Shown: piece after piece, positions 8,116 to 37,453 of the stretch | Layout of the letters: the number at the start of each line of letters is the position of its first letter | Position numbering within the stretch: the first letter of the stretch is position 1 | Assembly: GCF_044324785.1 (NCBI RefSeq) | Contig: NZ_CP172127.1 | DNA length: 64,000 nt | Direction: 5' to 3' (one strand) | From: Escherichia coli | Lineage (GTDB): Bacteria > Pseudomonadota > Gammaproteobacteria > Enterobacterales > Enterobacteriaceae | Notes under the pieces: generated by a model | Databases searched by the model: none | What the model saw: only the letters and a program-made list of their open reading frames with translations | What the model was told of the DNA's origin: nothing | Made by a program: the position numbers and the translations under genes

Positions 8116-9510
8116 TTTAAGCACACGTTGTCAATATTATTTGTTCCTGCGCCTGGAAATAAAATGATGATAAAGATGCGGCAAGTGAATTTGCCGCAAT
8201 TGCTACCTTTTTAGCAAATCCGAGGCACCTAATGGAACAATATGATCAAATTGGCGCAAGACTGGACCGCTTGCCTTTGGCCCGGTTTCATTATCGTATA
8301 TTTGGTATTATAAGCTTTAGTCTGTTATTAACGGGTTTTTTGAGTTATTCAGGCAATGTTGTTTTAGCAAAGCTGGTAAGCAATGGATGGTCAAATAATT
8401 TCCTCAATGCCGCCTTTACCTCGGCATTAATGTTTGGTTATTTCATCGGCTCTCTTACCGGTGGGTTCATCGGTGATTATTTTGGGCGGCGCAGGGCTTT
8501 TCGCATAAATCTTCTCATCGTCGGTATTGCGGCAACAGGGGCCGCTTTTGTCCCTGATATGTACTGGCTCATCTTCTTTCGCTTCCTGATGGGCACAGGA
8601 ATGGGGGCGCTGATTATGGTTGGCTATGCTTCGTTTACGGAGTTTATCCCCGCGACGGTGCGTGGAAAATGGTCCGCGCGGCTCTCATTTGTCGGTAACT
8701 GGTCGCCCATGTTGTCTGCGGCGATAGGCGTGGTGGTTATCGCTTTTTTTAGTTGGCGGATAATGTTTCTGCTGGGTGGTATTGGCATACTGTTAGCCTG
8801 GTTTCTCTCAGGTAAATACTTTATTGAGTCGCCTCGATGGTTGGCGGGGAAAGGACAAATCGCAGGTGCAGAAAGCCAACTTCGTGAAGTAGAGCAGCAA
8901 ATTGAAAGAGAGAAGAGTGTTCGTTTACCCCCGCTTACTTTGAATCAGAGCAACAGCAAGGCTAACATAATCAATGGTACTTTCTGGCTGCTGTTTAAAG
9001 GGAAAATGTTACGACGTACATTAGTCGCGATTACTGTTTTAATTGCAATGAACATTTCACTTTATACCATCACCGTATGGATACCGACCATATTTGTTAA
9101 CTCCGGCATTGATGTCGATAAATCAATATTAATGACTGCTGTTATTATGATTGGTGCTCCGGTAGGAATATTTATTGCGGCATTAATTATTGATCATTTT
9201 CCTCGTCGATTATTTGGCTCCGCCTTACTTATTATTATTGCCGTGTTAGGCTATATCTATTCAATTCAGACTACAGAGTGGGCGATTTTAATCTATGGCC
9301 TGGTGATGATCTTCTTTTTATACATGTATGTTTGCTTCGCGTCGGCGGTTTATATCCCGGAGCTTTGGCCAACGCATTTACGCCTGCGCGGTTCAGGTTT
9401 CGTTAATGCCGTCGGACGGATCGTCGCGGTCTTCACGCCTTATGGCGTTGCGGCACTATTAACGCATTATGGGTCAATCACGGTGTTTATAGTGCTTGGC
9501 GTGATGTTAG

Positions 9511-22004: not shown

Positions 22005-22625
22005 GTGCTAGACCGCCATCTTCATCCCCGAATTAAACCTTTGTTGCATCAGTGTGTGAAGGTGCTGGATAAACCCGGCATTACGCCAGATGGTTTAACA
22101 TTAGTGGGATTTGCCATCGGCGTGCTGGCACTGCCGTTTCTGGCGCTGGGCTGGTATCTGGCGGCGCTAATCGCCATTTTGTTGAACAGGCTGCTTGATG
22201 GTCTGGACGGTGCGCTGGCGCGGCGCAGAGGGCTTACCGACGCGGGCGGCTTTCTCGATATTTCTCTCGATTTTCTTTTTTACGCGCTGGTGCCTTTTGG
22301 GTTTATCCTCGCCGCACCGGAGCAAAACGCGCTGGCAGGCGGCTGGCTGCTGTTTGCGTTTATCGGCACGGGCAGCAGTTTTCTCGCCTTTGCTGCACTG
22401 GCAGCAAAACATCAGATTGATAACCCCGGTTATGCACATAAGTCGTTTTACTATCTGGGGGGATTAACCGAAGGCACAGAAACGATCTTACTGTTTGTGC
22501 TGGGATGTTTATTCCCTGCATGGTTTGCGTCGTTTGCGTGGATCTTCGGTGCGTTGTGCTGGATGACGACCTTTACGCGGGTGTGGAGTGGGTATCTGAC
22601 GCTGAAGTCGCTCCAGCGTCAGTAA
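22005..22625 (+). CDS. ynjF: CDP-alcohol phosphatidyltransferase-family membrane protein YnjF (206 aa, GTG start; alternative GTG at 21999)
   Basis: Track ORF 21999..22625; DG(x2)AR...G(x3)D-type motif (LDGLDGALARRRGLTDAGGFLDISLD) typical of CDP-alcohol phosphotransferases. Confidence 0.82.
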   Translation: MLDRHLHPRIKPLLHQCVKVLDKPGITPDGLTLVGFAIGVLALPFLALGWYLAALIAILLNRLLDGLDGALARRRGLTDAGGFLDISLDFLFYALVPFGFILAAPEQNALAGGWLLFAFIGTGSSFLAFAALAAKHQIDNPGYAHKSFYYLGGLTEGTETILLFVLGCLFPAWFASFAWIFGALCWMTTFTRVWSGYLTLKSLQRQ

Positions 22626-22633
22626 TTGCAATG

Positions 22634-23941
22634 TTATTTGCTGCTGTCCGGGCCGCGTTCACCGGTTGCTACCGGGTTTTTTGGATCGCTGCTCCACTCG
22701 TACCAGCCGCCGTCGTAAACGGAGACATTATTCCAGCCCATTGCTCGTGCGTACATAAAGGTTTCGGACGCGCGCCAGCCGGTGCCGCAGTAGAATGAAA
22801 CTTGCTGATCTGGCTTGATATTCCATGCTTTCCACATAGCGGTAATATCATCGGCGCTACGCATGGTGCCATCCGGGTTATGGAAATCTTCCATATGCGT
22901 CGAGTCGCTACCAGCGTGTCCCCAACGTGCTCCGGCTATTTCACCTTTTGGTTTAATATAGCTGTAACCGCTGGTCGTACCGATAAATTCTGGCCACGAA
23001 CGAATGCTCACCAGCGATGCATCCTGGCGATGCAGCAGTCCACGCGCCTGTTCCATATCAAGCATCAGTTGCGGTTGTGCCGGGATCTTCACGCCGAAAT
23101 CCGGTTCCGCTTTCACTTTCGGTGGCGTTCCGCGCTCAACGGGCAGACCCGCGTCGGACCAGGTTTGCCAGCCGCCGTCCAGCAGGCGCACATCTTTCAC
23201 GCCAGCGTAGAGCATAATTTGTGCCACACGCGCTGCAGCGTATACGTCACGCCCGTACAGAATGACCGTGGTGTCATGGCGAATGCCGTGTTTTGCCAGC
23301 ATCGCTTTTAGTTGTTCATCAGAAACTTTGTTCCACAGCGGTTCGCTTTCCACTTCGTTGGTATCGATGTAGTCAGCGCCGGGAATATGGCTGATAAGGT
23401 AAAGCTTAGGAGCGCCCCAGGCCGCTTCAATGACTTTCCAGTCACCGGCAGGTTTCGCCGTAACCTCTTTACCTTGTTGCAGGTCATGCAGCCATTGCGG
23501 ATAAACCAGCTGCTCAAAGTGCGGCAGTTTTTGCAGACGGGAAGGTTCGCTTAGCGCGTCACTCAGAATGGAGATATGCGTAAAACCTGCTTTTTGCAGT
23601 CGCGTTTTGACGGCGTCGACATCTTTGTCATTACCGTACAGCGCCACCGGAGCATCGGCTTTCAGGTTATGTTGCTTGATCCACGCGTTAAGCTGTTCGG
23701 TGCTCATTTTGTCGAGCCAGCTAGCAGAGAGGTTTAAGGCGGCAGGTTCATGACCAGAAGGGCCATTTAAGGTTTGTGGCCAGCCGTTATAAAACGCGCT
23801 GGGGCGAGTATCTATCGCTTTGCCATTTTGTTGTTGAAGCTGGTCAAGTGTAAGAGGCTTCGCCAGTTCAGCGGCCCACGAAGAAGCGCAAGCCAGCCCT
23901 AAAGCCATTGCCAGCGCGGTCATTTGAGAAACACGTTTCAT
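22634..23941 (-). CDS. ynjE: Periplasmic three-domain rhodanese / thiosulfate sulfurtransferase YnjE (435 aa)
   Basis: Track ORF 22634..23956; start at MKRVSQMTALAMALGLACASSWAA (signal peptide); active-site CGTGWR rhodanese loop. Confidence 0.88.
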   Translation of the reverse strand: MKRVSQMTALAMALGLACASSWAAELAKPLTLDQLQQQNGKAIDTRPSAFYNGWPQTLNGPSGHEPAALNLSASWLDKMSTEQLNAWIKQHNLKADAPVALYGNDKDVDAVKTRLQKAGFTHISILSDALSEPSRLQKLPHFEQLVYPQWLHDLQQGKEVTAKPAGDWKVIEAAWGAPKLYLISHIPGADYIDTNEVESEPLWNKVSDEQLKAMLAKHGIRHDTTVILYGRDVYAAARVAQIMLYAGVKDVRLLDGGWQTWSDAGLPVERGTPPKVKAEPDFGVKIPAQPQLMLDMEQARGLLHRQDASLVSIRSWPEFIGTTSGYSYIKPKGEIAGARWGHAGSDSTHMEDFHNPDGTMRSADDITAMWKAWNIKPDQQVSFYCGTGWRASETFMYARAMGWNNVSVYDGGWYEWSSDPKNPVATGERGPDSSK

Positions 23942-24007
23942 CGAAAATCCCGACATTGTAGTTTTGAGTGCGCCATTCTGAACTGACGCATTGAGAAAAA
24001 CTTTGCG

Positions 24008-24661
24008 TTATCGCAGTTTGTTGTAATTTTCTGACCACTGCGCCATATCCAGAACAGAACTATCAGCAGGAACATCCTGGAGATCGTGCGTTACCTGAAC
24101 GACGGGGATCGCCAGGGCGCGAACTTCGCTAAATACCCACTGGCGAAAATTATCGCGCAGAGCTACATCAAGACGGCTGAATGGCTCATCCAGTAGCAAC
24201 GCTTTTGGCTGAGCGAGAAGAGCGCGAAGCAGAGCAACGCGCGCTCGCTGACCACCGGACAGAGTAGCAGGATCCTGATGGAACATACCGCCAAGCCCCG
24301 CACGCTCCAGCGCATCATTTACCGCATCGCGCCTTGCAATACCTTTGAGTGCCGCTGGCAGAGCCAGCAGTAAATTTTGCCCGACGCTGAACTGGTCAAA
24401 TAACAGTGCATCCTGGAAAAGAATGCCAATCTGACGCTCTGCGGTGGGTAGCATGTCAATCCGTTGCTCATTGAGCCATAGCTCACCTGTACAAGAAAAC
24501 TGTCCGGCCAGCGCACCAATCATCCATGAAAACAGAGTGGATTTTCCACAGCCAGACGGCCCCATTAACGTGACAATGTCACATTTATCCACCGTAAAGT
24601 TAACGTTTGTCAGCAAGCAGCTTTCTGGTAAACGTAGCGAAACATTTTTCACGCAGAGCAT
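24008..24661 (-). CDS. ynjD: ABC transporter ATP-binding subunit YnjD (217 aa)
   Basis: Track ORF 24008..24748; start MLCVKNVSL; Walker A GPSGCGKST, signature LSGGQRARV, Walker B LLLDEP; start codon overlaps the ynjC stop by 1 nt. Confidence 0.88.
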   Translation of the reverse strand: MLCVKNVSLRLPESCLLTNVNFTVDKCDIVTLMGPSGCGKSTLFSWMIGALAGQFSCTGELWLNEQRIDMLPTAERQIGILFQDALLFDQFSVGQNLLLALPAALKGIARRDAVNDALERAGLGGMFHQDPATLSGGQRARVALLRALLAQPKALLLDEPFSRLDVALRDNFRQWVFSEVRALAIPVVQVTHDLQDVPADSSVLDMAQWSENYNKLR

Positions 24662-26196
24662 TAGCGGAGTCCTTGTCTGACATAACCTACCCATTTTGCG
24701 ACTAACGCGGTCAGGGCAAAAATAATAAGCGGTAATAGCAGTTGCCATAAAGCCTGGGCGGCGAGAATACCGTTGCTGCCGCCGCTGCTTAATGCCACCG
24801 CTTCAGTGGTGAGCGTCGGAAAACGCCCCGCGCCCAGCCACAGCGTCGGCATATACTGTGCAATACTGACTGAAAATCCCACCGCGAAGGCAATCAGCGT
24901 AGGGCGTAGCATAAGCGGACATTTCACGTAAAAGAAGATTTTGGACTGCGACCAGCCCAGTGTTTGCGCAATCAAAATTAACCGTGAATCAATGCGCTGC
25001 CAGGCGGGTTGCAGGATAAACAGCATCCACGGCATTACCCACAGCAGATGCCCCCAGACCACCGCCGTCCAGCTTCCATCCAGGTTTAGCCATAGAGCCA
25101 GCGTGTACTGGCCCGCCACCAGTGGCAGAGCGGGTAATAAAATGGGCAACCATAGCCACAACTGGCGACGCTGTGGCCCCCATTCCAGCCACAGCAGTAA
25201 CAGGAGCAAAGCGATGAATGTCGCCACCAGCCCCATTGTCAGGCTGTTGATGAGCGCTTCACTATTGATCGTCGACTGATCCGCGAGGATCGCCAGCAGA
25301 ACCACACACAGCACACCGGTCAAGGGTAAAAAACTCGCCAGCGTATTGCCTGGCAATAAAGACGTGGCAGGCTTACGAACGCCATCTACGCGGGGAATAT
25401 TACGCCGCCAGCCACGCCATAGCAGATAGCCCAGCAAAACGTAGGCGGCGAGTAACAGCATCAGCAGCAGGCTGGCGAGTGCGCCTTTCGCTTGTTGATC
25501 GGCGTCGCCCTGAGTTAACCACTGCCAGCTAATTACTGCCAGCGTCGGTGGATTACCTGGCCCAAGAATAATCGCCACATCCACGACCGACAGCGACCAG
25601 GCAACAATCGCCAGCATCGCCATTGCTAATGCAGGCGCGACGGAGGGCAACAGCAGCCAGTTCAGGCATTGCCAGCGGCTGTAGCCCAGCGAATCCAGCA
25701 CAATGACCTGCTGCAATAGCCGTTTTTCGCTCAATACTGCCGCTAAGATCCACAGCAGAAATGCGCTTTCTTTCACCGCCAGGGTGAGGCCCAGCCCAAT
25801 ACCCAATTTATCCATTGGCGGAGTGAAATATGGGAAATAGTCATAAAGCAGCCCTCCGTCAGCAAAGAGCAGAAGGGTGCTGGTGGCAAAAGCCACATGG
25901 GGAATGGCGAGCAGCCACGGCAGACGGGCGCACATACGCTGCCATTTCGGCCCAGGCCACAGCGCCACAATCACCAGCAGGGCAATCAACAACGCCCCGA
26001 CCGCCGCGATGGTTGTCGACACCAGCGTTGCCAGTAATGCCTGCGGTAACTGTGGATCGGCAAATAACGTCTGCCAGTGTGTCAACGACAAAGCAGGCGA
26101 TATCAGCGTGAGAGCTGCCGGGATCAGCGGTGCATAAATCACCGCCACCATCGCCCACAGCAAAAAGATTAATGCGTACCGTAACGGTGTAGCCAT
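24661..26196 (-). CDS. ynjC: ABC transporter permease (double TMD, thiamine/iron-type importer family) YnjC (511 aa)
   Basis: Track ORF 24661..26220; start at MATPLRYALIFLLWAM; two repeated six-span permease halves. Confidence 0.85.
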   Translation of the reverse strand: MATPLRYALIFLLWAMVAVIYAPLIPAALTLISPALSLTHWQTLFADPQLPQALLATLVSTTIAAVGALLIALLVIVALWPGPKWQRMCARLPWLLAIPHVAFATSTLLLFADGGLLYDYFPYFTPPMDKLGIGLGLTLAVKESAFLLWILAAVLSEKRLLQQVIVLDSLGYSRWQCLNWLLLPSVAPALAMAMLAIVAWSLSVVDVAIILGPGNPPTLAVISWQWLTQGDADQQAKGALASLLLMLLLAAYVLLGYLLWRGWRRNIPRVDGVRKPATSLLPGNTLASFLPLTGVLCVVLLAILADQSTINSEALINSLTMGLVATFIALLLLLLWLEWGPQRRQLWLWLPILLPALPLVAGQYTLALWLNLDGSWTAVVWGHLLWVMPWMLFILQPAWQRIDSRLILIAQTLGWSQSKIFFYVKCPLMLRPTLIAFAVGFSVSIAQYMPTLWLGAGRFPTLTTEAVALSSGGSNGILAAQALWQLLLPLIIFALTALVAKWVGYVRQGLR

Positions 26197-27335
26197 TCTT
26201 GTTCCAGCGCATTTACCCAACCTGCGTGCGGTTCAGCCAGTACCGGCGGCAGATCTTGCGGCATTCTTGATTGCAATGTTTCGCGCTGCCCATCAGGCAG
26301 TTTTTGCGGATCGAGAACAGAAGGATCGCCCCAGACAGCGGGATCTGCTTTACGCAATTGCGCATCGGGTGAGAGCAAGAAATTGGCAACTACCTTCGCC
26401 GCAGCACTGGCATTCGCGTTGGCAGGAATGGTGACGAAATGCACGTTGCCAATCATCCCCTCGCGAAAGCCAAAACTGTAACTGCTTGCAGGCAAATCGC
26501 CGCTGGCGATTTTTTGCTGCGCATGCGCGGGGTTAAAGGTCAGCGACAGGCGCAATGTGCCGGCTTTCAGCAGAGCATCCATCCGCGCGGGCGAAGGCGG
26601 GAAATCCTTTCCTTCGCGCCATAAATACGGATGCAGCGTATCAAGATATTGCCACAAGGGCGCAGTGACACGGGCGAAAGTCGCATCGTCCGGCGCTTCT
26701 TTTAATGCTGTGGGATCTGGCGTTAGCATAATCAGCAACTGTTCAAGAAACGCCGTGCCGGTAAAGTCCGGTGGGCGCGGATAGGTAACCGTGCCGGGAT
26801 TGGCTTTAGCAAACTCCAGTAAGGCTTGCGGCGTTTGTGGTGGCTGTGGCGTAACATCGCGGCGGGCGATAAATGTCAGTTGTGCGCCACCCCAGGGCGA
26901 TTCAGCCCCTTCTGTAGGCACTGAAAAATCTTCCCGCACCGGCAGCTGTGTGTCGACATAGCGCCAGTTGGGCAGAGTCTCCGCCCAGCCCGTTTGTAAT
27001 AAATTGGCCTCTTTTAAGGTGCGGAAGTTTTCGCCGTTCACCCAGAGCAGATCCACCGAGCCGCCCGTTTTACGTCCGGCAGCAGCTTCGGTCTGAATGC
27101 GCTTCACCGCGTCTGCGGCATCCGCGAGACGAACAATCTTCAGGTTTATAGCGTAATGGGTTTTCATCTCGCCGCTAACCCAGTCGAGATAGCGGTTAAT
27201 TGCGGTATCGCCGCCCCAGGCGTTAAACCATACGGTTTGTCCTTTGGCCTCATTTTTTATTTCCTGCCAGTCACTGGCATGTGTTGCCAAAGAAAACAGC
27301 GATAACAATCCCAGCAACCACCCACAATGGCGCAT
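26169..27335 (-). CDS. ynjB: ABC transporter periplasmic substrate-binding protein YnjB (388 aa)
   Basis: Track ORF 26169..27338; signal peptide MRHCGWLLGLLSLFSLATHA; 3' end overlaps the ynjC start. Confidence 0.85.
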   Translation of the reverse strand: MRHCGWLLGLLSLFSLATHASDWQEIKNEAKGQTVWFNAWGGDTAINRYLDWVSGEMKTHYAINLKIVRLADAADAVKRIQTEAAAGRKTGGSVDLLWVNGENFRTLKEANLLQTGWAETLPNWRYVDTQLPVREDFSVPTEGAESPWGGAQLTFIARRDVTPQPPQTPQALLEFAKANPGTVTYPRPPDFTGTAFLEQLLIMLTPDPTALKEAPDDATFARVTAPLWQYLDTLHPYLWREGKDFPPSPARMDALLKAGTLRLSLTFNPAHAQQKIASGDLPASSYSFGFREGMIGNVHFVTIPANANASAAAKVVANFLLSPDAQLRKADPAVWGDPSVLDPQKLPDGQRETLQSRMPQDLPPVLAEPHAGWVNALEQEWLHRYGTH

Positions 27336-27344
27336 CATCTCTCC

Positions 27345-27893
27345 TTAAGAACGTTTTTCAGGAATACGGCACAGCCCCTGAGCGGGAATGTCCATGGCAG
27401 AATTAAAACGAGCCGACAGGTTTTGCAGGCCGATCAATGCCGTCAGTTCGGTGAGCGCCTGGGCGTCAAAATGCGCAGCCAGTCGGGTACGCAGGGCATC
27501 ATCGACCGTTGGCGGCGTTACGCTTGCGGCTTCGGCGTACTCCAGCGCCAGCCGTTCTTCATCGCTAAAGAGCGGGCTTTGCCGCCAGTCAGCCACTGCC
27601 AGCAGTTTATCGGTGCTGCCAGTGCGCTCGGCGACTTTCATACTGGTGATATCCACGCAAAACTCACACAGACACATTTGCGCAATGCGCGCGCTGACAA
27701 GCGATCGCACTACCGGATCCAGCGGTGAGCGTTTGCGCTCCAGCCAGCCGACAAACATCGACACCAGATAAAAGATAAACGGGATCCGCCCCCACCAGCG
27801 AATCGGGCTTAGCACCTCGCCGTAATGGCGACGATGCAGCCACGCCTGCGGACGTAAAATGAAAGGAATTTTGCTAAGCGGCGGTAAACCCAT
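27345..27893 (-). CDS. ynjA: AhpD-like / carboxymuconolactone-decarboxylase-family protein YnjA (182 aa)
   Basis: Track ORF; CxxC-containing (CEFCVD) AhpD-like core. Confidence 0.82.
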   Translation of the reverse strand: MGLPPLSKIPFILRPQAWLHRRHYGEVLSPIRWWGRIPFIFYLVSMFVGWLERKRSPLDPVVRSLVSARIAQMCLCEFCVDITSMKVAERTGSTDKLLAVADWRQSPLFSDEERLALEYAEAASVTPPTVDDALRTRLAAHFDAQALTELTALIGLQNLSARFNSAMDIPAQGLCRIPEKRS

Positions 27894-28600
27894 CAGGCAT
27901 TCCTCTTCTGGCGCTCAAGCCATATTTTCTTCGCCATAAAAATCACCACGGTCAGGGCAAACAGAATAAACAGTCCGGTGACAAACCAGAAAGTACCGCC
28001 TGTTAACATGCTGCCCGCCCAGGAATAAACAATAGTCGCCGGTAACTGACCAAGCCCGGTGGCGATAAAAAACGAGCGAAAACGTATTGAAGTCAAACCG
28101 GCAGCATAGCTGATTGGATCGAAAGGGACAAAAGGCAATAACCGACATACCAGGATGGTGTGTTTGCCGTAGCGAGTGAAAAAGCCGTCCATACTCTCAA
28201 GCACGGTCTTGCCGGTTAATTTTTCCACCACTTCGCGGCCCATCACTCTGGCGATAAAAAAGCACAGCGCCGCGCCGGCCATCGAACTGGTCCACGACAG
28301 CAAGCCACCCCAGAACGCGCCAAACAGCGACGCATTGGCAAAGGTGATCAAAAACGCAGGTAGCGGTGCAGCAATGGCCTGTAAAATCATCAACAAGAAC
28401 GATACAACTGCCGCTAGTGCGCCGTAAGACTGAATAAAGCGTTCTATACCCTGTTGGTCCACGGCGGCAAACGCCGTAACGCTGCGATTGATAAACTCAT
28501 GGACGCCGGGAAGCAGCGCCCATGCCAGCAGCATAGCGAACAACAGGATGATGAGGGTTATACGGTAGTACCAGATTTTTCGCGATTGCATCTTCATCAT
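27893..28600 (-). CDS. ydjZ: DedA/TVP38-family inner membrane protein YdjZ (235 aa)
   Basis: Track ORF; DedA-type re-entrant helices; stop overlaps the ynjA start. Confidence 0.85.
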   Translation of the reverse strand: MMKMQSRKIWYYRITLIILLFAMLLAWALLPGVHEFINRSVTAFAAVDQQGIERFIQSYGALAAVVSFLLMILQAIAAPLPAFLITFANASLFGAFWGGLLSWTSSMAGAALCFFIARVMGREVVEKLTGKTVLESMDGFFTRYGKHTILVCRLLPFVPFDPISYAAGLTSIRFRSFFIATGLGQLPATIVYSWAGSMLTGGTFWFVTGLFILFALTVVIFMAKKIWLERQKRNA

Positions 28601-28614
28601 CCTTTATCCTGGCT

Positions 28615-29292
28615 TTATTCGGTGATTTTAAAGGTAACCGTTGCCAGCGTGTTATCCGCCGGGAGAACCGAGGCATTGCCTTTGAATTTCACTTCGCCGC
28701 GTTTTTCCACCGCACCATAAGTGTATGTTGCATTGCTGACGATGCCGACCGGGCAGCTATCCAGACACACCAGGCAACCCGTTTTCTTCTCTTCTGCTGC
28801 CGTTAAATTACCGCCAAAGCGCATGTCCAGTTTCTTGCCATTACTGTCAACAATCACTTCATCGAAGGAATACGCTTTTGCCGCCCCTTGCCAGTTGACC
28901 GAAATATCCAGTTTGCTGCCTGTGACATGAGTCGTTTCTTTATTATCCATCGTCATGTTTTCGCCCGGCGTACCACCTGCCTCTTTCAGGGCTTCATAAA
29001 ATGCTTTCGGGGTCGCATAACCCATAAACAGCGATTTATGTCCGTTGGAGCCATCTTTAAACACAATACCGTGACGAGTGTCGTCGGTGAGGAAACGACC
29101 ATTAATTTGCACCAGCATGGTTACCGTATGGTTATTAGCATCGACACGCAGCGGTTGGCTGTTCGAAAGTCCGTCGTATTCCACTTTTGCCGCCGCATTC
29201 TCTTGTTGATCGCAGCCGCTAAGCCCAGCAACAGCCAGTAAACAGAGTGCAGCCAGTCCTTTTTTCCATGACACTGAATAATGTTGCAACAT
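28615..29292 (-). CDS. ydjY: Putative lipoprotein YdjY (225 aa)
   Basis: Track ORF 28615..29454; start at MLQHYSVSWKKGLAALCLLAVAGLSGC (lipobox LSGC). Confidence 0.8.
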   Translation of the reverse strand: MLQHYSVSWKKGLAALCLLAVAGLSGCDQQENAAAKVEYDGLSNSQPLRVDANNHTVTMLVQINGRFLTDDTRHGIVFKDGSNGHKSLFMGYATPKAFYEALKEAGGTPGENMTMDNKETTHVTGSKLDISVNWQGAAKAYSFDEVIVDSNGKKLDMRFGGNLTAAEEKKTGCLVCLDSCPVGIVSNATYTYGAVEKRGEVKFKGNASVLPADNTLATVTFKITE

Positions 29293-29296
29293 CGTT

Positions 29297-30007
29297 CTAT
29301 CCTTCATTTTTTGGGTGAGAAAGTGGGCTGCGGCGAGAAGCAGACAGATCCACATGTTTGTGTCGGGCGTAGAGTTTTGCGAGCTGGACGAGAATAAACA
29401 GCGCCAGGCCCGCCAGACAGAGTTGTAAAATAAAGCGCAGCGTAATGCCTTCATTGGCGAGATCGCTTGCCATCACGGTATAAATAACAATACCGGGCAG
29501 GGTCGTGAGTGCCGAAATAAGGGTATAAGGCCAGAAGGCGATTGTGGTTAATCCGTAAGCGTAATTTTGAATATTGTAAGGAAACAACGGGATTAAGCGG
29601 GTCAGAATAAGAAAATCAATACCGTTACGCGCAATGCCTTTTTCAATGGCCTGAAAGGTATGGCTATGGCCAACGTATTTCAGCAGTAAATCACGTCCCA
29701 GCCAGCGCGCCAGCAGGAATGAGCACGAGGAGGCCAGCGTGGCGGCAATTAATGATAGTAGTGTCCCTAAGAGCGGGCCAAAAACTATTCCTCCAGCGAT
29801 CACCAGTATGCTTCCTGGTAACAGAAAGAGGGTGGCAATGATGAATAACAGAATATAGAGGCTATAACCGAACAATCCGCTCTGGCGAATGAGTGTCAGT
29901 AAGTGAGGTAAATCGGTGAGCAGCTCGAATAAACCGAAAGCGTGGAAAGCGTAAATGACCAGCGCAAAAATAAGACAGGCAAACAGAAATTTACGCTCAG
30001 CGTTCAT
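29297..30007 (-). CDS. ydjX: DedA/TVP38-family inner membrane protein YdjX (236 aa)
   Basis: Track ORF 29297..30055; start at MNAERKFLFACLIFALVIY. Confidence 0.85.
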   Translation of the reverse strand: MNAERKFLFACLIFALVIYAFHAFGLFELLTDLPHLLTLIRQSGLFGYSLYILLFIIATLFLLPGSILVIAGGIVFGPLLGTLLSLIAATLASSCSFLLARWLGRDLLLKYVGHSHTFQAIEKGIARNGIDFLILTRLIPLFPYNIQNYAYGLTTIAFWPYTLISALTTLPGIVIYTVMASDLANEGITLRFILQLCLAGLALFILVQLAKLYARHKHVDLSASRRSPLSHPKNEG

Positions 30008-30173
30008 TGTGGAGTTTCCTATATCAAACTTGATAATAGAGAAGTGGTCAGACAACTAAAAACGCAGTGACGGTATAACAAAGGGCGGCAGGCAACAAAT
30101 CATTACTGACAGTTTGTTGATTTTTCTCAAGGTTAATTCTCCTGACCCAGTTTGAGCCAGGAGAACAGCTAAA

Positions 30174-30980
30174 TTAGCGGCGGAAGGTCGCCCAGACGGG
30201 GGCGTGATCGGACGGTTTTTCCATGCTGCGGATTTCATAGTCGATGCCGGTTTCTACGCAACATTCTGCCAGCGGTTGGCTGGCGAGAAGCAGGTCGATA
30301 CGCAGACCGCGGTTATCGTCAAAACCTTTTGAGCGGTAATCAAACCATGAGAAACGATCGGCTGTTTGCGGATTCGCATGGCGGAAGGTATCGACCAACC
30401 CCCAGCTCATCAGTCTCTCCATCCATTCGCGTTCTTCAGGAAGGAAAGAGCATTTTCCGGTACGCAGCCAGCGCTTACGGTTCTCTTCGCCAATGCCAAT
30501 ATCCAGGTCGCCAGGACTGATATTCATATCGCCCATAATCAGCACCGGATTTTCACGCTTGAGTTCGGTTTCCAGGTAGTTTTGCAGATTCTGATAAAAC
30601 TGCGCCTTTGCCGGGAATTTTATCGGATGGTCGCGGCTTTCACCCTGCGGGAAGTAACCGTTGATCACGGTAACATTGCCCAGCGTCGAGGGGATTTCAG
30701 CCATAATAATTCGCCGTTGCGCCTCTTCGTCATCACCCGGAAAACCGCGACGCACGGCAATCGGCGTCTCTTTGGTCAGCAGCGCCACGCCATAATGGCC
30801 TTTCTGCCCGTGATAAAACACGTTGTAGCCGAGCTTCGCCACCTCTTCGAGCGGAAACATATCGTCATGAACTTTTGTCTCCTGCAGGCCAATCACATCC
30901 GGTTGGTGCTTTTCGACGATGGCTTCAAGCTGGTGAGGTCTGGCGCGCAGGCCGTTGATATTAAAAGAGACAAATTTCAT
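30174..30980 (-). CDS. xthA: Exodeoxyribonuclease III (AP endonuclease VI) XthA (268 aa)
   Basis: Track ORF 30174..30992; start [36 protein letters not shown]. Confidence 0.95.
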
Positions 30981-31337
30981 AGTCGCTGCCATTTATTCAG
31001 ATAAAGAGTGCGTGGATGGTAGCAGAATTTCGCTTTGCGTACCGCCTGTTGTTAAGTGATTTGATCGATGGTTGTTAATGATGTCAACGATGGCGCAAAA
31101 AATGCCCGCTTTTGGTGCGCGCTGCGTCAGAATGGCGCAGTAATTTCCAGTAAATTTCGTCAATGATCACAATTCCAGAATTATATTTTACTTCTGCATA
31201 ACATTACGTTTTTTATTCTTTTTATTCACCCACATCGCAAACGTATTCACTTTATATGCACTTTAAATGCATATGGTTTGGTTATAACTCCTTGATTTCC
31301 AGTTAGCCTCCGCCGTTTATGCACTTTTATCACTGGC

Positions 31338-31353
31338 TGGCACGAACCCTGCA
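31338..31353 (+). promoter_or_regulatory. Sigma-54 (-24/-12) promoter element of astCADBE: TGGCAC-N5-CTGCA
   Basis: TGGCACGAACCCTGCA read at 31338-31353 with correct GG/GC spacing, ~70 bp upstream of astC ATG; ast operon is known to be NtrC/sigma-54, sigma-S and ArgR controlled. Confidence 0.7.
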
Positions 31354-31389
31354 ATCTACATTTACAGCGCAAACATTACTTATTATTAA

Positions 31390-37453
<6,064 letters not shown>

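Follow-up and report, generated by a model that had tools for sequence, protein, structure and literature searches.

Conserved cysteines in the ydjXYZ-ynjABCDE cluster of Escherichia coli suggest a possible relay for chalcogen or metalloid species

The ydjXYZ-ynjABCD operon and the adjacent ynjE gene occupy positions 22634-30007 (minus strand) of a 64-kb window from Escherichia coli (contig NZ_CP172127.1; the window is the whole stretch of DNA that was analysed, 64,000 nt). They encode two VTT/DedA membrane proteins (YdjX and YdjZ), a lipoprotein (YdjY), an AhpD-like protein (YnjA), an ATP-binding cassette (ABC) importer (YnjBCD) and a periplasmic rhodanese (YnjE). From sequence comparisons we tentatively propose, with a probability of about 0.4, that the cluster is an anaerobically induced envelope system whose core is a cysteine relay carrying thiophilic chalcogen or metalloid species across the inner membrane. 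This reading is suggested because the cysteines of YdjY are invariant, YdjZ has conserved cysteines of its own, partners of the CxxC, CCG and disulfide-reductase types recur, rhodaneses occur as partners and as fusions, an extracytoplasmic thiol-reducing pair is present in the Facklamia cluster and ydjY and ydjZ can form a two-gene unit. Conserved cysteines are found in an exported protein (YdjY), in a membrane protein (YdjZ) and in a putative cytoplasmic acceptor (the CxxC of YnjA or a Fer4/CCG protein). Since the cluster is under FNR control and is co-expressed with yedEF, sulfane sulfur or selenium is the most plausible substrate in E. coli; in relatives linked to the radical S-adenosylmethionine (SAM) enzyme ArsS the substrate may be an arsenical.

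The lipoprotein YdjY

The ydjY gene (28615-29292, minus strand) encodes an exported lipoprotein with the lipobox LSGC (Cys27), the founding member of the YdjY family (PF27149 / NF040466). Only the 'YdjY domain' model is matched in NCBIfam, and the structural model of the protein has no fold match in the PDB. The family is small, with 390 clusters at E <= 0.001 among 1.84 billion representatives, and the search patterns used located it in at least 107 of 100,044 species genomes. Its homologues are 45-83% identical across phyla (among them Escherichia, Citrobacter, Finegoldia, Peptostreptococcus, Gemella, Facklamia, Catonella, Clostridium, Campylobacter, Sulfurospirillum, Desulfarculus and Syntrophus) and in every one the N-terminus is a signal peptide or carries a lipobox. 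No variation was seen at R73-H74, N112, D149, F159-G-G-N162, G172-C173, C176, D178-S179-C180, S186-N187 and E196; these residues include the invariant motif C173-x2-C176-x-D-S-C180 (C-x2-C-x3-C).

In UniProt and in the K-12 annotation YdjY carries the label '4Fe-4S ferredoxin', which we judge unlikely to be correct. The label (4Fe-4S ferredoxin-type) stems from a Cx2Cx3CP fragment, the Pfam Fer4 families match at E >= 0.089, and YdjY has three cysteines in the arrangement Cx2Cx3C as against Cx2Cx2Cx3CP. There is no twin-arginine motif, and export through a lipobox makes a pre-assembled Fe-S cluster unlikely.

Fusions connect the family to other proteins. When 14 long YdjY-family proteins were compared with Pfam, four were found to carry a rhodanese domain, two a VTT domain and one a fatty-acid hydroxylase domain; further rhodanese-fused members are listed in the AlphaFold Database (AFDB). 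The rhodanese and VTT fusions tie YdjY directly to two other protein types of the E. coli cluster.

Two further observations concern this gene. AFDB lists a family member in Desulfuribacillus stibiiarsenatis, an organism associated with antimonate and arsenate. In the window the ydjY frame is open for 162 nt upstream of the annotated start (28615-29454, minus strand), overlapping the end of ydjX; the 246- and 279-residue versions of YdjY in public databases are probably over-extended.

YdjZ and YdjX are distinct VTT types

Both ydjX (29297-30007, the first gene of the operon) and ydjZ (27893-28600), on the minus strand, encode VTT/DedA membrane proteins, that of ydjX being of the COG0398 (TVP38) type. 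PF09335 (VTT) is recorded on orthologues of the two proteins, and both give weak NCBIfam matches to UptA and DedA. The YdjZ and YdjX types are conserved separately: phmmer finds YdjZ-type orthologues in Firmicutes and Campylobacter at E values of 1e-72 to 1e-84 and those of the YdjX type at 1e-18 to 1e-33. An alignment of 60 YdjZ-type sequences has 68 positions that are conserved in at least 95% of them. Cys113 is present in 60/60 and Cys152, which adjoins the conserved R153-L-L-P156, in 57/60, and no conserved cysteine was found in YdjX-type proteins.

A role of YdjX and YdjZ as flippases of undecaprenyl phosphate (UndP), as for UptA and DedA, was rejected on the basis of the literature. YdjX and YdjZ belong to the COG0398 class of DedA proteins, which are without the residues of the UndP flippases and resemble eukaryotic scramblases; the commonest fusion partners of this class are pyridine-nucleotide disulfide oxidoreductases (Todor et al.). 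Of the eight DedA paralogues of E. coli, only DedA conferred high-level resistance to MX2401. The NCBIfam UptA scores of YdjX and YdjZ (29-35 bits against a cutoff of 250) also argue against membership of UptA.

Genomic neighbourhoods of ydjY

The surroundings of ydjY were compared at 84 loci, three of them duplicates, from 31 taxon groups. Among the partners of YdjY, the VTT protein typified by YdjZ is the most conserved. A VTT protein is encoded within 10 kb at 74 loci (28 groups) and within 1.5 kb at 67 (25 groups); of the ten VTT-less loci, five are short contigs (<11 kb) or carry ydjY at the end of the contig. YdjX-type orthologues are present at 34 of the 84 loci. Next in frequency are a free small four-transmembrane protein with a VWLEMR motif (29 loci, 12 groups), an HdrD- or DsrK-like Fer4/CCG protein (20 loci, 11 groups), a YnjB-like binding protein (17 loci, 8 groups), a YnjE-like rhodanese (15 loci, 6 groups), a YnjF-like CDP-alcohol phosphatidyltransferase (10 loci, 6 groups) and ArsS (9 loci, 7 groups).

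The simplest arrangement occurs in Gemella and Finegoldia, where ydjY and ydjZ stand alone as a two-gene unit amid unrelated housekeeping genes (for an ABC-F ATPase, arginyl-tRNA ligase and BrnQ); this fits a self-sufficient unit of binding protein plus carrier. YdjY, a YdjX-type and a YdjZ-type protein and YnjB/C/D, with or without YnjF, occur together in varied order in Clostridium, Bacillus benzoevorans, Catonella and several metagenome-assembled genomes of Bacillota. In such Firmicute clusters the YnjB-like proteins are 30-35% identical to YnjB (E 1e-56 to 1e-76) and are accompanied by a split YnjC and by YnjD.

The VWLEMR-motif proteins (125-155 aa) are four-helix membrane proteins of an unannotated family, encoded directly after ydjY at the 29 loci, for example at L002 10649-11029, L056 1985-2362 and L049 4717-5097. 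In many Firmicutes the same protein is fused to the N-terminus of a YdjZ of about 395 residues, as in the N-terminal part of L017 9593-10777. E. coli does not have this small protein. In Desulfobacterota the Fer4/CCG protein and the VTT protein are joined in one chain. Two such fusions, of a two-cluster Fer4 plus CCG (HdrD/DsrK-like) reductase to a VTT protein, adjoin ydjY at L003 11205-12977 and L080 8173-9888.

Other recurrent partners are proteins with a C-GCAxxG-C-C motif and proteins with MprF-like flippase domains (TIGR00374; L016 and L042). An AhpD-like protein adjoins YdjY in Syntrophus. The Facklamia cluster adds a DsbD/CcdA-like membrane protein, a ResA-like thioredoxin and a Rih-like nucleoside hydrolase. 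In the same locus (L079 3693-4160) a 155-aa open reading frame (ORF) covers only positions 1-147 of the 238 of the selenoprotein PrdB model; it may be a selenoprotein gene that the ORF caller cut at an in-frame UGA.

YnjA, the YnjBCD importer, YnjE and YnjF

YnjA (27345-27893, minus strand) has the AhpD/carboxymuconolactone-decarboxylase (CMD) fold, with CMD/AhpD proteins as its PDB relatives (E 1.4e-9 to 1.7e-5). Its cysteines are arranged as C74-x-C76-x-x-C79, in which C76-E-F-C79 forms the CxxC of the AhpD/CMD family. The NCBIfam model of the YciW-related (seleno)protein matches it at E 5.6e-29, below the cutoff. YnjA is predicted to be a cytoplasmic thiol-disulfide protein.

The next three genes, also on the minus strand, specify a binding-protein-dependent ABC importer: the exported solute-binding protein YnjB (26169-27335), the fused double-domain permease YnjC (24661-26196, annotated ATG at 26196) and the ATPase YnjD (24008-24661), the product of the last of the seven operon genes. 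YnjB scores 562 bits with NF008633, matches Pfam SBP_bac_8 and starts with a signal sequence; a homologue search with it returned Enterobacteriaceae only. YnjC has two permease stretches according to NCBIfam, which are separate genes in Firmicute clusters, and YnjD matches ABC ATPase models of NCBIfam and has the Walker A sequence GPSGCGKST. The original prediction had asked for a ligand class of YnjB to be derived from structure. A sequence search gave no PDB relative of YnjB, Foldseek aligned its model with PotD, PhnS, FbpA and AfuA at a template modelling score (TM) of about 0.6 and at most 18% identity, and this search and a PDB profile search converge on no single ligand. The label of thiamine transporter was rejected: in the profile search the thiamine-binding protein 2QRY reached an insignificant E value of 0.46, and no Rfam element, the thiamine pyrophosphate (TPP) riboswitch included, reached the threshold in 21000-31500.

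YnjE (22634-23941, minus strand) is the three-domain rhodanese of PDB entries 3IPO/2WLR (E <= 1e-285, near-identical), with the active-site Cys385 in the six-residue loop C-G-T-G-W-R that is expected of a rhodanese. Its next-best PDB relatives are 6H98 and 6KTV, chains of 441-460 residues that align with residues 33-427 at E of about 1e-87; we take them to be EanB, the anaerobic ergothioneine sulfurtransferase, whereas the PDB table names them 'Sulfurtransferase' only. YnjE has been reported to be periplasmic (PMC10215317). In K-12 it is annotated as a molybdopterin synthase sulfurtransferase.

Facing ynjE on the plus strand is ynjF (22005-22625), which encodes a CDP-alcohol phosphatidyltransferase. 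The two genes are convergent, with stop codons 8 nt apart, and the pair is listed as a convergent transcriptional overlap, or 'excludon' (PMC12288877). The closest NCBIfam models of YnjF are the archaetidylinositol-phosphate and phosphatidylinositol-phosphate synthases, both below cutoff. Homologues of YnjF lie within YdjY/VTT/YnjBCD clusters of five non-enterobacterial loci. We propose that ynjF, which the original prediction missed, belongs to the conserved neighbourhood and should be added to the system as an associated component.

Gene arrangement and conservation in E. coli

Coordinates were taken from the ORF listing and cross-checked with the RefSeq annotation of the best-matching E. 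coli genome and of K-12 MG1655. The eight minus-strand genes are found where the original prediction had placed them, and its family assignments agree with NCBIfam, PDB, Pfam and the positions of the cysteines. The close junctions that it had described are also present: a 4-nt gap between ydjX and ydjY, 1-nt overlaps between ydjZ and ynjA and between ynjC and ynjD, and a 28-nt overlap between ynjB and ynjC. To these can be added gaps of 14 nt (ydjY/ydjZ), 9 nt (ynjA/ynjB) and 66 nt (ynjD/ynjE). A Shine-Dalgarno-like purine run precedes the start codon of every one of the eight genes, and tight coupling of the first seven is supported.

Of 5426 complete E. coli genomes, 5424 match the 9-kb stretch, and 5392 cover at least 80% of it. 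Because the arrangement is near-universal in E. coli and most of the gene set clusters again in Firmicutes, it is not due to chance. The GC content of the individual genes (0.48-0.57) is unremarkable. For positions 22000-31000 of the window, the closest of the 5424 matches is 98.5% identical and most are 95-99% identical; the lineage of the window is therefore not closely represented among complete genomes. Despite that divergence the ynjD-ynjE regulatory region is identical to that of K-12. Nearby, nudG on the minus strand and ynjH on the plus strand share 35 nt at their 3' ends (21511-21545); this pair, too, is among the transcriptional overlaps listed for K-12.

Transcription

The original prediction of a single eight-gene transcript was not borne out: the published data indicate a seven-gene operon followed by a single gene. 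Chromatin immunoprecipitation sequencing (ChIP-seq) and RNA sequencing (RNA-seq) in K-12 identified two units that FNR activates directly: the operon ydjXYZ-ynjABCD, with a site at -60.5, and ynjE on its own, with a site at -41.5 (PMC3688515). The operon promoter lies in the xthA-ydjX intergenic region (30008-30173, minus strand), which contains the FNR-like site TTGAGAAAAATCAA at 30117-30130, with one mismatch to TTGAT-N4-ATCAA. Five of 181 positions of this spacer differ from K-12, none of them within the site, which is identical in the two sequences. The separate ynjE promoter falls in the 66-nt ynjD-ynjE gap (23942-24007, minus strand), where a promoter scan detected the promoter-like hexamers TTCAGA-16-TACAAT at 23982-23955. 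A simple consensus search gave no convincing FNR site upstream of ynjE, and the assignment of this promoter therefore rests on the published ChIP-seq and RNA-seq.

Additional starts and stops within the operon were considered. Overproduction of BaeR induced ynjABCD, with ynjA and ynjB up 1.4- to 1.6-fold and a Northern blot for ynjA; the authors found no BaeR site there (PMC2731931). In view of this response an internal start, inside ydjZ, is possible. Terminator-like sites are more numerous in the cluster than expected (28 versus 13), and all are weak stems of 5-8 bp within coding sequence. An intragenic sigma-54 binding motif has been published for K-12 ynjE, GTGGCGCAGATTATGCT; the window has GTGGCACAAATTATGCT, with two mismatches, at 23211-23227 (minus strand).

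Independent-component analysis of E. coli transcriptomes placed the operon and ynjE, together with yedEF and yjiLM, in an uncharacterised iModulon that is active anaerobically; yedEF is described there as a putative selenium or sulfur transporter and a TusA-like protein (sulfurtransferase) (PMC7888660).

A possible cysteine relay

The proposed relay can be set out in six steps, the first of which, activation of the ydjX and ynjE promoters by FNR, is published. The periplasmic rhodanese YnjE would then load or exchange the species on Cys385 and hand it to the lipoprotein YdjY, where C173, C176 and C180 would hold it, as their invariance and the YdjY-rhodanese fusions suggest. YdjZ, whose Cys113 and Cys152 are inside the VTT domain, would carry the species across the membrane, probably with YdjX, and the cytoplasmic CxxC protein YnjA would receive or reduce it. 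In other phyla the place of YnjA may be taken by the HdrD-like Fer4/CCG proteins, some of them VTT-fused. In the least-supported steps, YnjBCD would import an organic co-substrate and YnjF may fix the product onto a phospholipid.

Several points weigh against such a relay. The basis of every one of its mechanistic steps is conservation, neighbourhood or fusion, and it is an analogy, since the proteins have no homology to the Mer or YeeE/YedE proteins. The VTT/DedA proteins that have been characterised move lipids (UndP and phospholipids), not ions. The recurrent ABC importer, CDP-alcohol phosphatidyltransferase, MprF-like flippase domains, kinases and glycosyltransferases are poorly explained by it. 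Purified YnjE had little activity with thiosulfate or 3-mercaptopyruvate and no apparent thiosulfate:glutathione activity (PMC10215317).

The connection with ArsS belongs with these reservations. ArsS of Campylobacter concisus, at one of the loci described above, scores 448 bits with TIGR04167 (cutoff 300), a model named arsenosugar radical-SAM enzyme in NCBIfam. The family is very large, with at least 8000 matches at E < 1e-20, and at four sampled ArsS loci from different phyla neither YdjY nor a VTT protein was found (0/4); the tie to ArsS therefore holds for a subset only. At all four (L087-L090, upstream of position 9001) an AhpD-like TIGR04169 protein of about 110 aa is encoded directly upstream of ArsS, so that these two look like the invariant core pair of the cassette. 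YnjA was tried as this ArsS-associated AhpD-like protein and rejected, the relationship being distant only (18% identity, E 4e-4). The ArsS cassette is present in relatives such as L056, L079 and L080 and absent from the E. coli window, in which tblastn detected none of ArsS, TIGR04282, TIGR04283, the CCG protein and the VWLEMR-motif protein. As the sampled ArsS loci are without the module and the window is without ArsS, YdjY/VTT is an accessory of some ArsS cassettes, and the E. coli version is ArsS-free.

Alternative explanations

The partners that fit a relay poorly are better accommodated by a lipid head-group cycle, the main rival explanation, which we consider unlikely though well worth weighing. 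YnjBCD would import a polar alcohol or sugar, YnjF would attach it to CDP-diacylglycerol, YdjX and YdjZ would flip the lipid-linked product to the outer leaflet, and YdjY and YnjE would modify or transfer it in the periplasm. Relatives would make the head group by way of ArsS, a nucleosidase, a kinase, a nucleotidyltransferase and a GT2 glycosyltransferase, which may attach it to polyprenyl phosphate, and the thiol proteins would serve a head-group S, Se or As centre that is redox-active. Phosphatidyltransferases like YnjF, of the phosphatidylinositol-phosphate-synthase type, do occur inside the clusters of six groups, and the MprF-like domains of L016 and L042 are flippase domains. Encoded in the Catonella, Campylobacter and Facklamia clusters are an APH/choline-kinase-like kinase, a CofC/DUF2064 nucleotidyltransferase, a GT2 protein, a Rih-like nucleoside hydrolase and ArsS; the nucleotidyltransferase/GT2 pair corresponds to TIGR04282/TIGR04283, named 'arsenosugar biosynthesis glycosyltransferases'. 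A kinase, a nucleotidyltransferase and a GT2 enzyme follow the logic of the route from sugar-1-kinase through a nucleoside-diphosphate sugar to a lipid carrier. Lipid transport is also what characterised VTT/DedA proteins perform, and COG0398 members are similar to eukaryotic phospholipid scramblases. The ArsS loci (9) and the loci with a YnjB-type importer (17) share none, as would be expected of make-or-import variants, but this is statistically not strong, with about 1.8 shared loci expected. Under colistin, a drug that targets lipids, the P213S substitution in ynjC made cells markedly fitter, a strong advantage (PMC9184624).

Other findings speak against the cycle. The YdjY-YdjZ unit of Gemella and Finegoldia has no lipid-synthesis genes nearby, and it is not obvious what the invariant cysteines of YdjZ and the reductase-VTT fusions would do in scrambling. 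The E. coli window lacks genes for the kinase, the nucleotidyltransferase, the GT2 protein and ArsS, and ynjF is on the opposite strand; its convergent overlap with ynjE could make the expression of the two mutually exclusive (PMC12288877). On balance, YnjF, the importer, the MprF-like flippases, the set of kinase, nucleotidyltransferase and GT2 and the known lipid activity of the superfamily fit the cycle better than the relay, and the cysteines, the reductase fusions and the stand-alone unit fit it less well. It could also be that relay and lipid cycle are arms of one pathway.

It appears quite improbable that the genes have separate functions and are merely co-regulated by anaerobiosis, with YnjBCD as a nutrient importer of the polyamine/phosphonate/thiamine class, YdjX and YdjZ as redundant DedA proteins of membrane homeostasis and YnjE in molybdopterin synthesis. 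The eight DedA paralogues of E. coli, the promoter of ynjE's own, the resemblance of YnjB to generic cluster-D binding proteins and the many YdjY loci without importer and without rhodanese are in line with this, as is the K-12 annotation of YnjE, which is also cited in PMC3688515. However, the same combination of genes recurs in distant lineages in different orders, and YdjY is fused to rhodanese and to VTT domains. In addition, a cytoplasmic role of YnjE in molybdenum cofactor synthesis sits badly with its cleaved signal peptide and reported periplasmic location, and the insignificant match to the thiamine-binding protein and the missing TPP riboswitch argue against the thiamine option.

Very unlikely, finally, is an envelope-stress or detoxification module that would remove or neutralise a toxic thiophilic or cationic compound instead of taking up a nutrient: the BaeR response of ynjABCD, the altered colistin fitness of ynjC mutants, the lowered uptake of a cationic dye after ynjC deletion, the family member in D. 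stibiiarsenatis and the pointer from ArsS to arsenic transformation favour it, but ABC systems that work with a periplasmic binding protein are importers, the BaeR effect is small and without a BaeR site, and the main control is by FNR and anaerobiosis.

Relation to published work and significance

The original prediction had described the cluster as lacking an assigned pathway, and this holds: no paper assigning it a function, substrate or pathway was found in the searchable literature, the physiological substrate of YnjE has been called unclear (PMC10215317) and the iModulon is termed 'uncharacterized' (PMC7888660). The further statement that the system was still undescribed is right for function and wrong for the operon, the regulon and the co-expression module, all of which are published. 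As genes, operon and FNR control are already catalogued, the locus itself is not a discovery. The conserved cysteines of YdjY and YdjZ, the fusions and the links to ArsS and YnjF are, as far as could be found, undescribed. The original prediction also envisaged, in general terms, that a redox-active solute of the sulfur or selenium type is taken up and processed in the envelope; this idea gains from the invariant cysteines, the rhodanese fusions and the thiol-reductase partners, and was partly anticipated in the literature.

The locus bears on transport by the COG0398 branch of DedA/VTT proteins, which has the human scramblases TMEM41B and VMP1 among its relatives, on the acquisition of selenium or sulfane sulfur by E. 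coli specifically in anaerobiosis, and on the actual role of the periplasmic rhodanese YnjE. A bolder version of the cysteine relay can be formulated, which we regard as doubtful. YdjY and YdjZ would represent an undescribed type of translocation, a lipoprotein-to-VTT cysteine relay for chalcogens or metalloids; in E. coli it would provide, under FNR control, the missing route by which selenium or sulfane sulfur reaches anaerobic selenoenzymes and molybdoenzymes, and in other phyla it would feed carbon-heteroatom bond formation by ArsS-type radical-SAM enzymes and unusual sugar lipids. If true, it would provide the first specific substrate for the COG0398 branch, the one closest to TMEM41B and VMP1. 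Experimental handles are offered by the five conserved cysteines, the minimal unit of two genes, the natural fusions and the links to ArsS cassettes and YnjF, and E. coli is genetically easy.

Comparison with known systems

Likenesses to known systems concern either single components or the logic of the whole. EanB forms a carbon-sulfur bond using polysulfide and, if 6H98 and 6KTV are EanB as we take them to be, is represented by the closest PDB relatives of YnjE from outside E. coli. Unlike EanB, YnjE has a signal peptide and is periplasmic, and no EanA-type methyltransferase was noticed at the locus. The importer resembles the PotD/PhnS/ThiB class in that a signal-peptide-bearing binding protein of the SBP_bac_8 type goes with a double permease and a single ATPase, but YnjB is 15-18% identical to any liganded structure, there is no TPP riboswitch, and in Firmicutes the importer is linked to YdjY/VTT genes. 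The ArsS radical-SAM cassette (TIGR04167/04169/04282/04283, formerly 'rSAM/selenodomain') includes YdjY and VTT genes in seven taxon groups, whereas ArsS, TIGR04282 and TIGR04283 are absent from the E. coli window and YnjA is distant from TIGR04169.

With regard to overall logic, in the Mer system of mercury uptake and reduction a periplasmic cysteine protein (MerP) passes a thiophilic atom to cysteines of a small membrane protein (MerT) and from there to a cytoplasmic enzyme of the disulfide-reductase type (MerA). The proposed relay follows the same logic with the three cysteines of YdjY, the two of YdjZ and cytoplasmic partners of the CxxC or HdrD-like type, some of them fused to the membrane protein; however, there is no kinship in sequence or fold, the membrane protein is of the VTT/DedA type, and neither a mer regulator nor MerA is present. 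In a second system, YeeE/YedE with YeeD/YedF (TsuA-TsuB), which serves thiosulfate and selenium-linked uptake, the membrane carrier is thought to depend on conserved cysteines and is paired with a small sulfur-carrier protein. The likeness here extends to expression, as yedEF shares one anaerobic iModulon with the operon and ynjE (PMC7888660). The families are nevertheless unrelated, yedEF lies elsewhere on the chromosome, and the cluster analysed here adds a lipoprotein, a periplasmic rhodanese and an ABC importer. The UptA/DedA flippases and the TMEM41B/VMP1 scramblases, finally, are relatives by descent, since YdjX and YdjZ are members of the DedA/VTT superfamily; in contrast to its other members, the YdjZ type is characterized by its invariant cysteines and by its obligatory partner YdjY.

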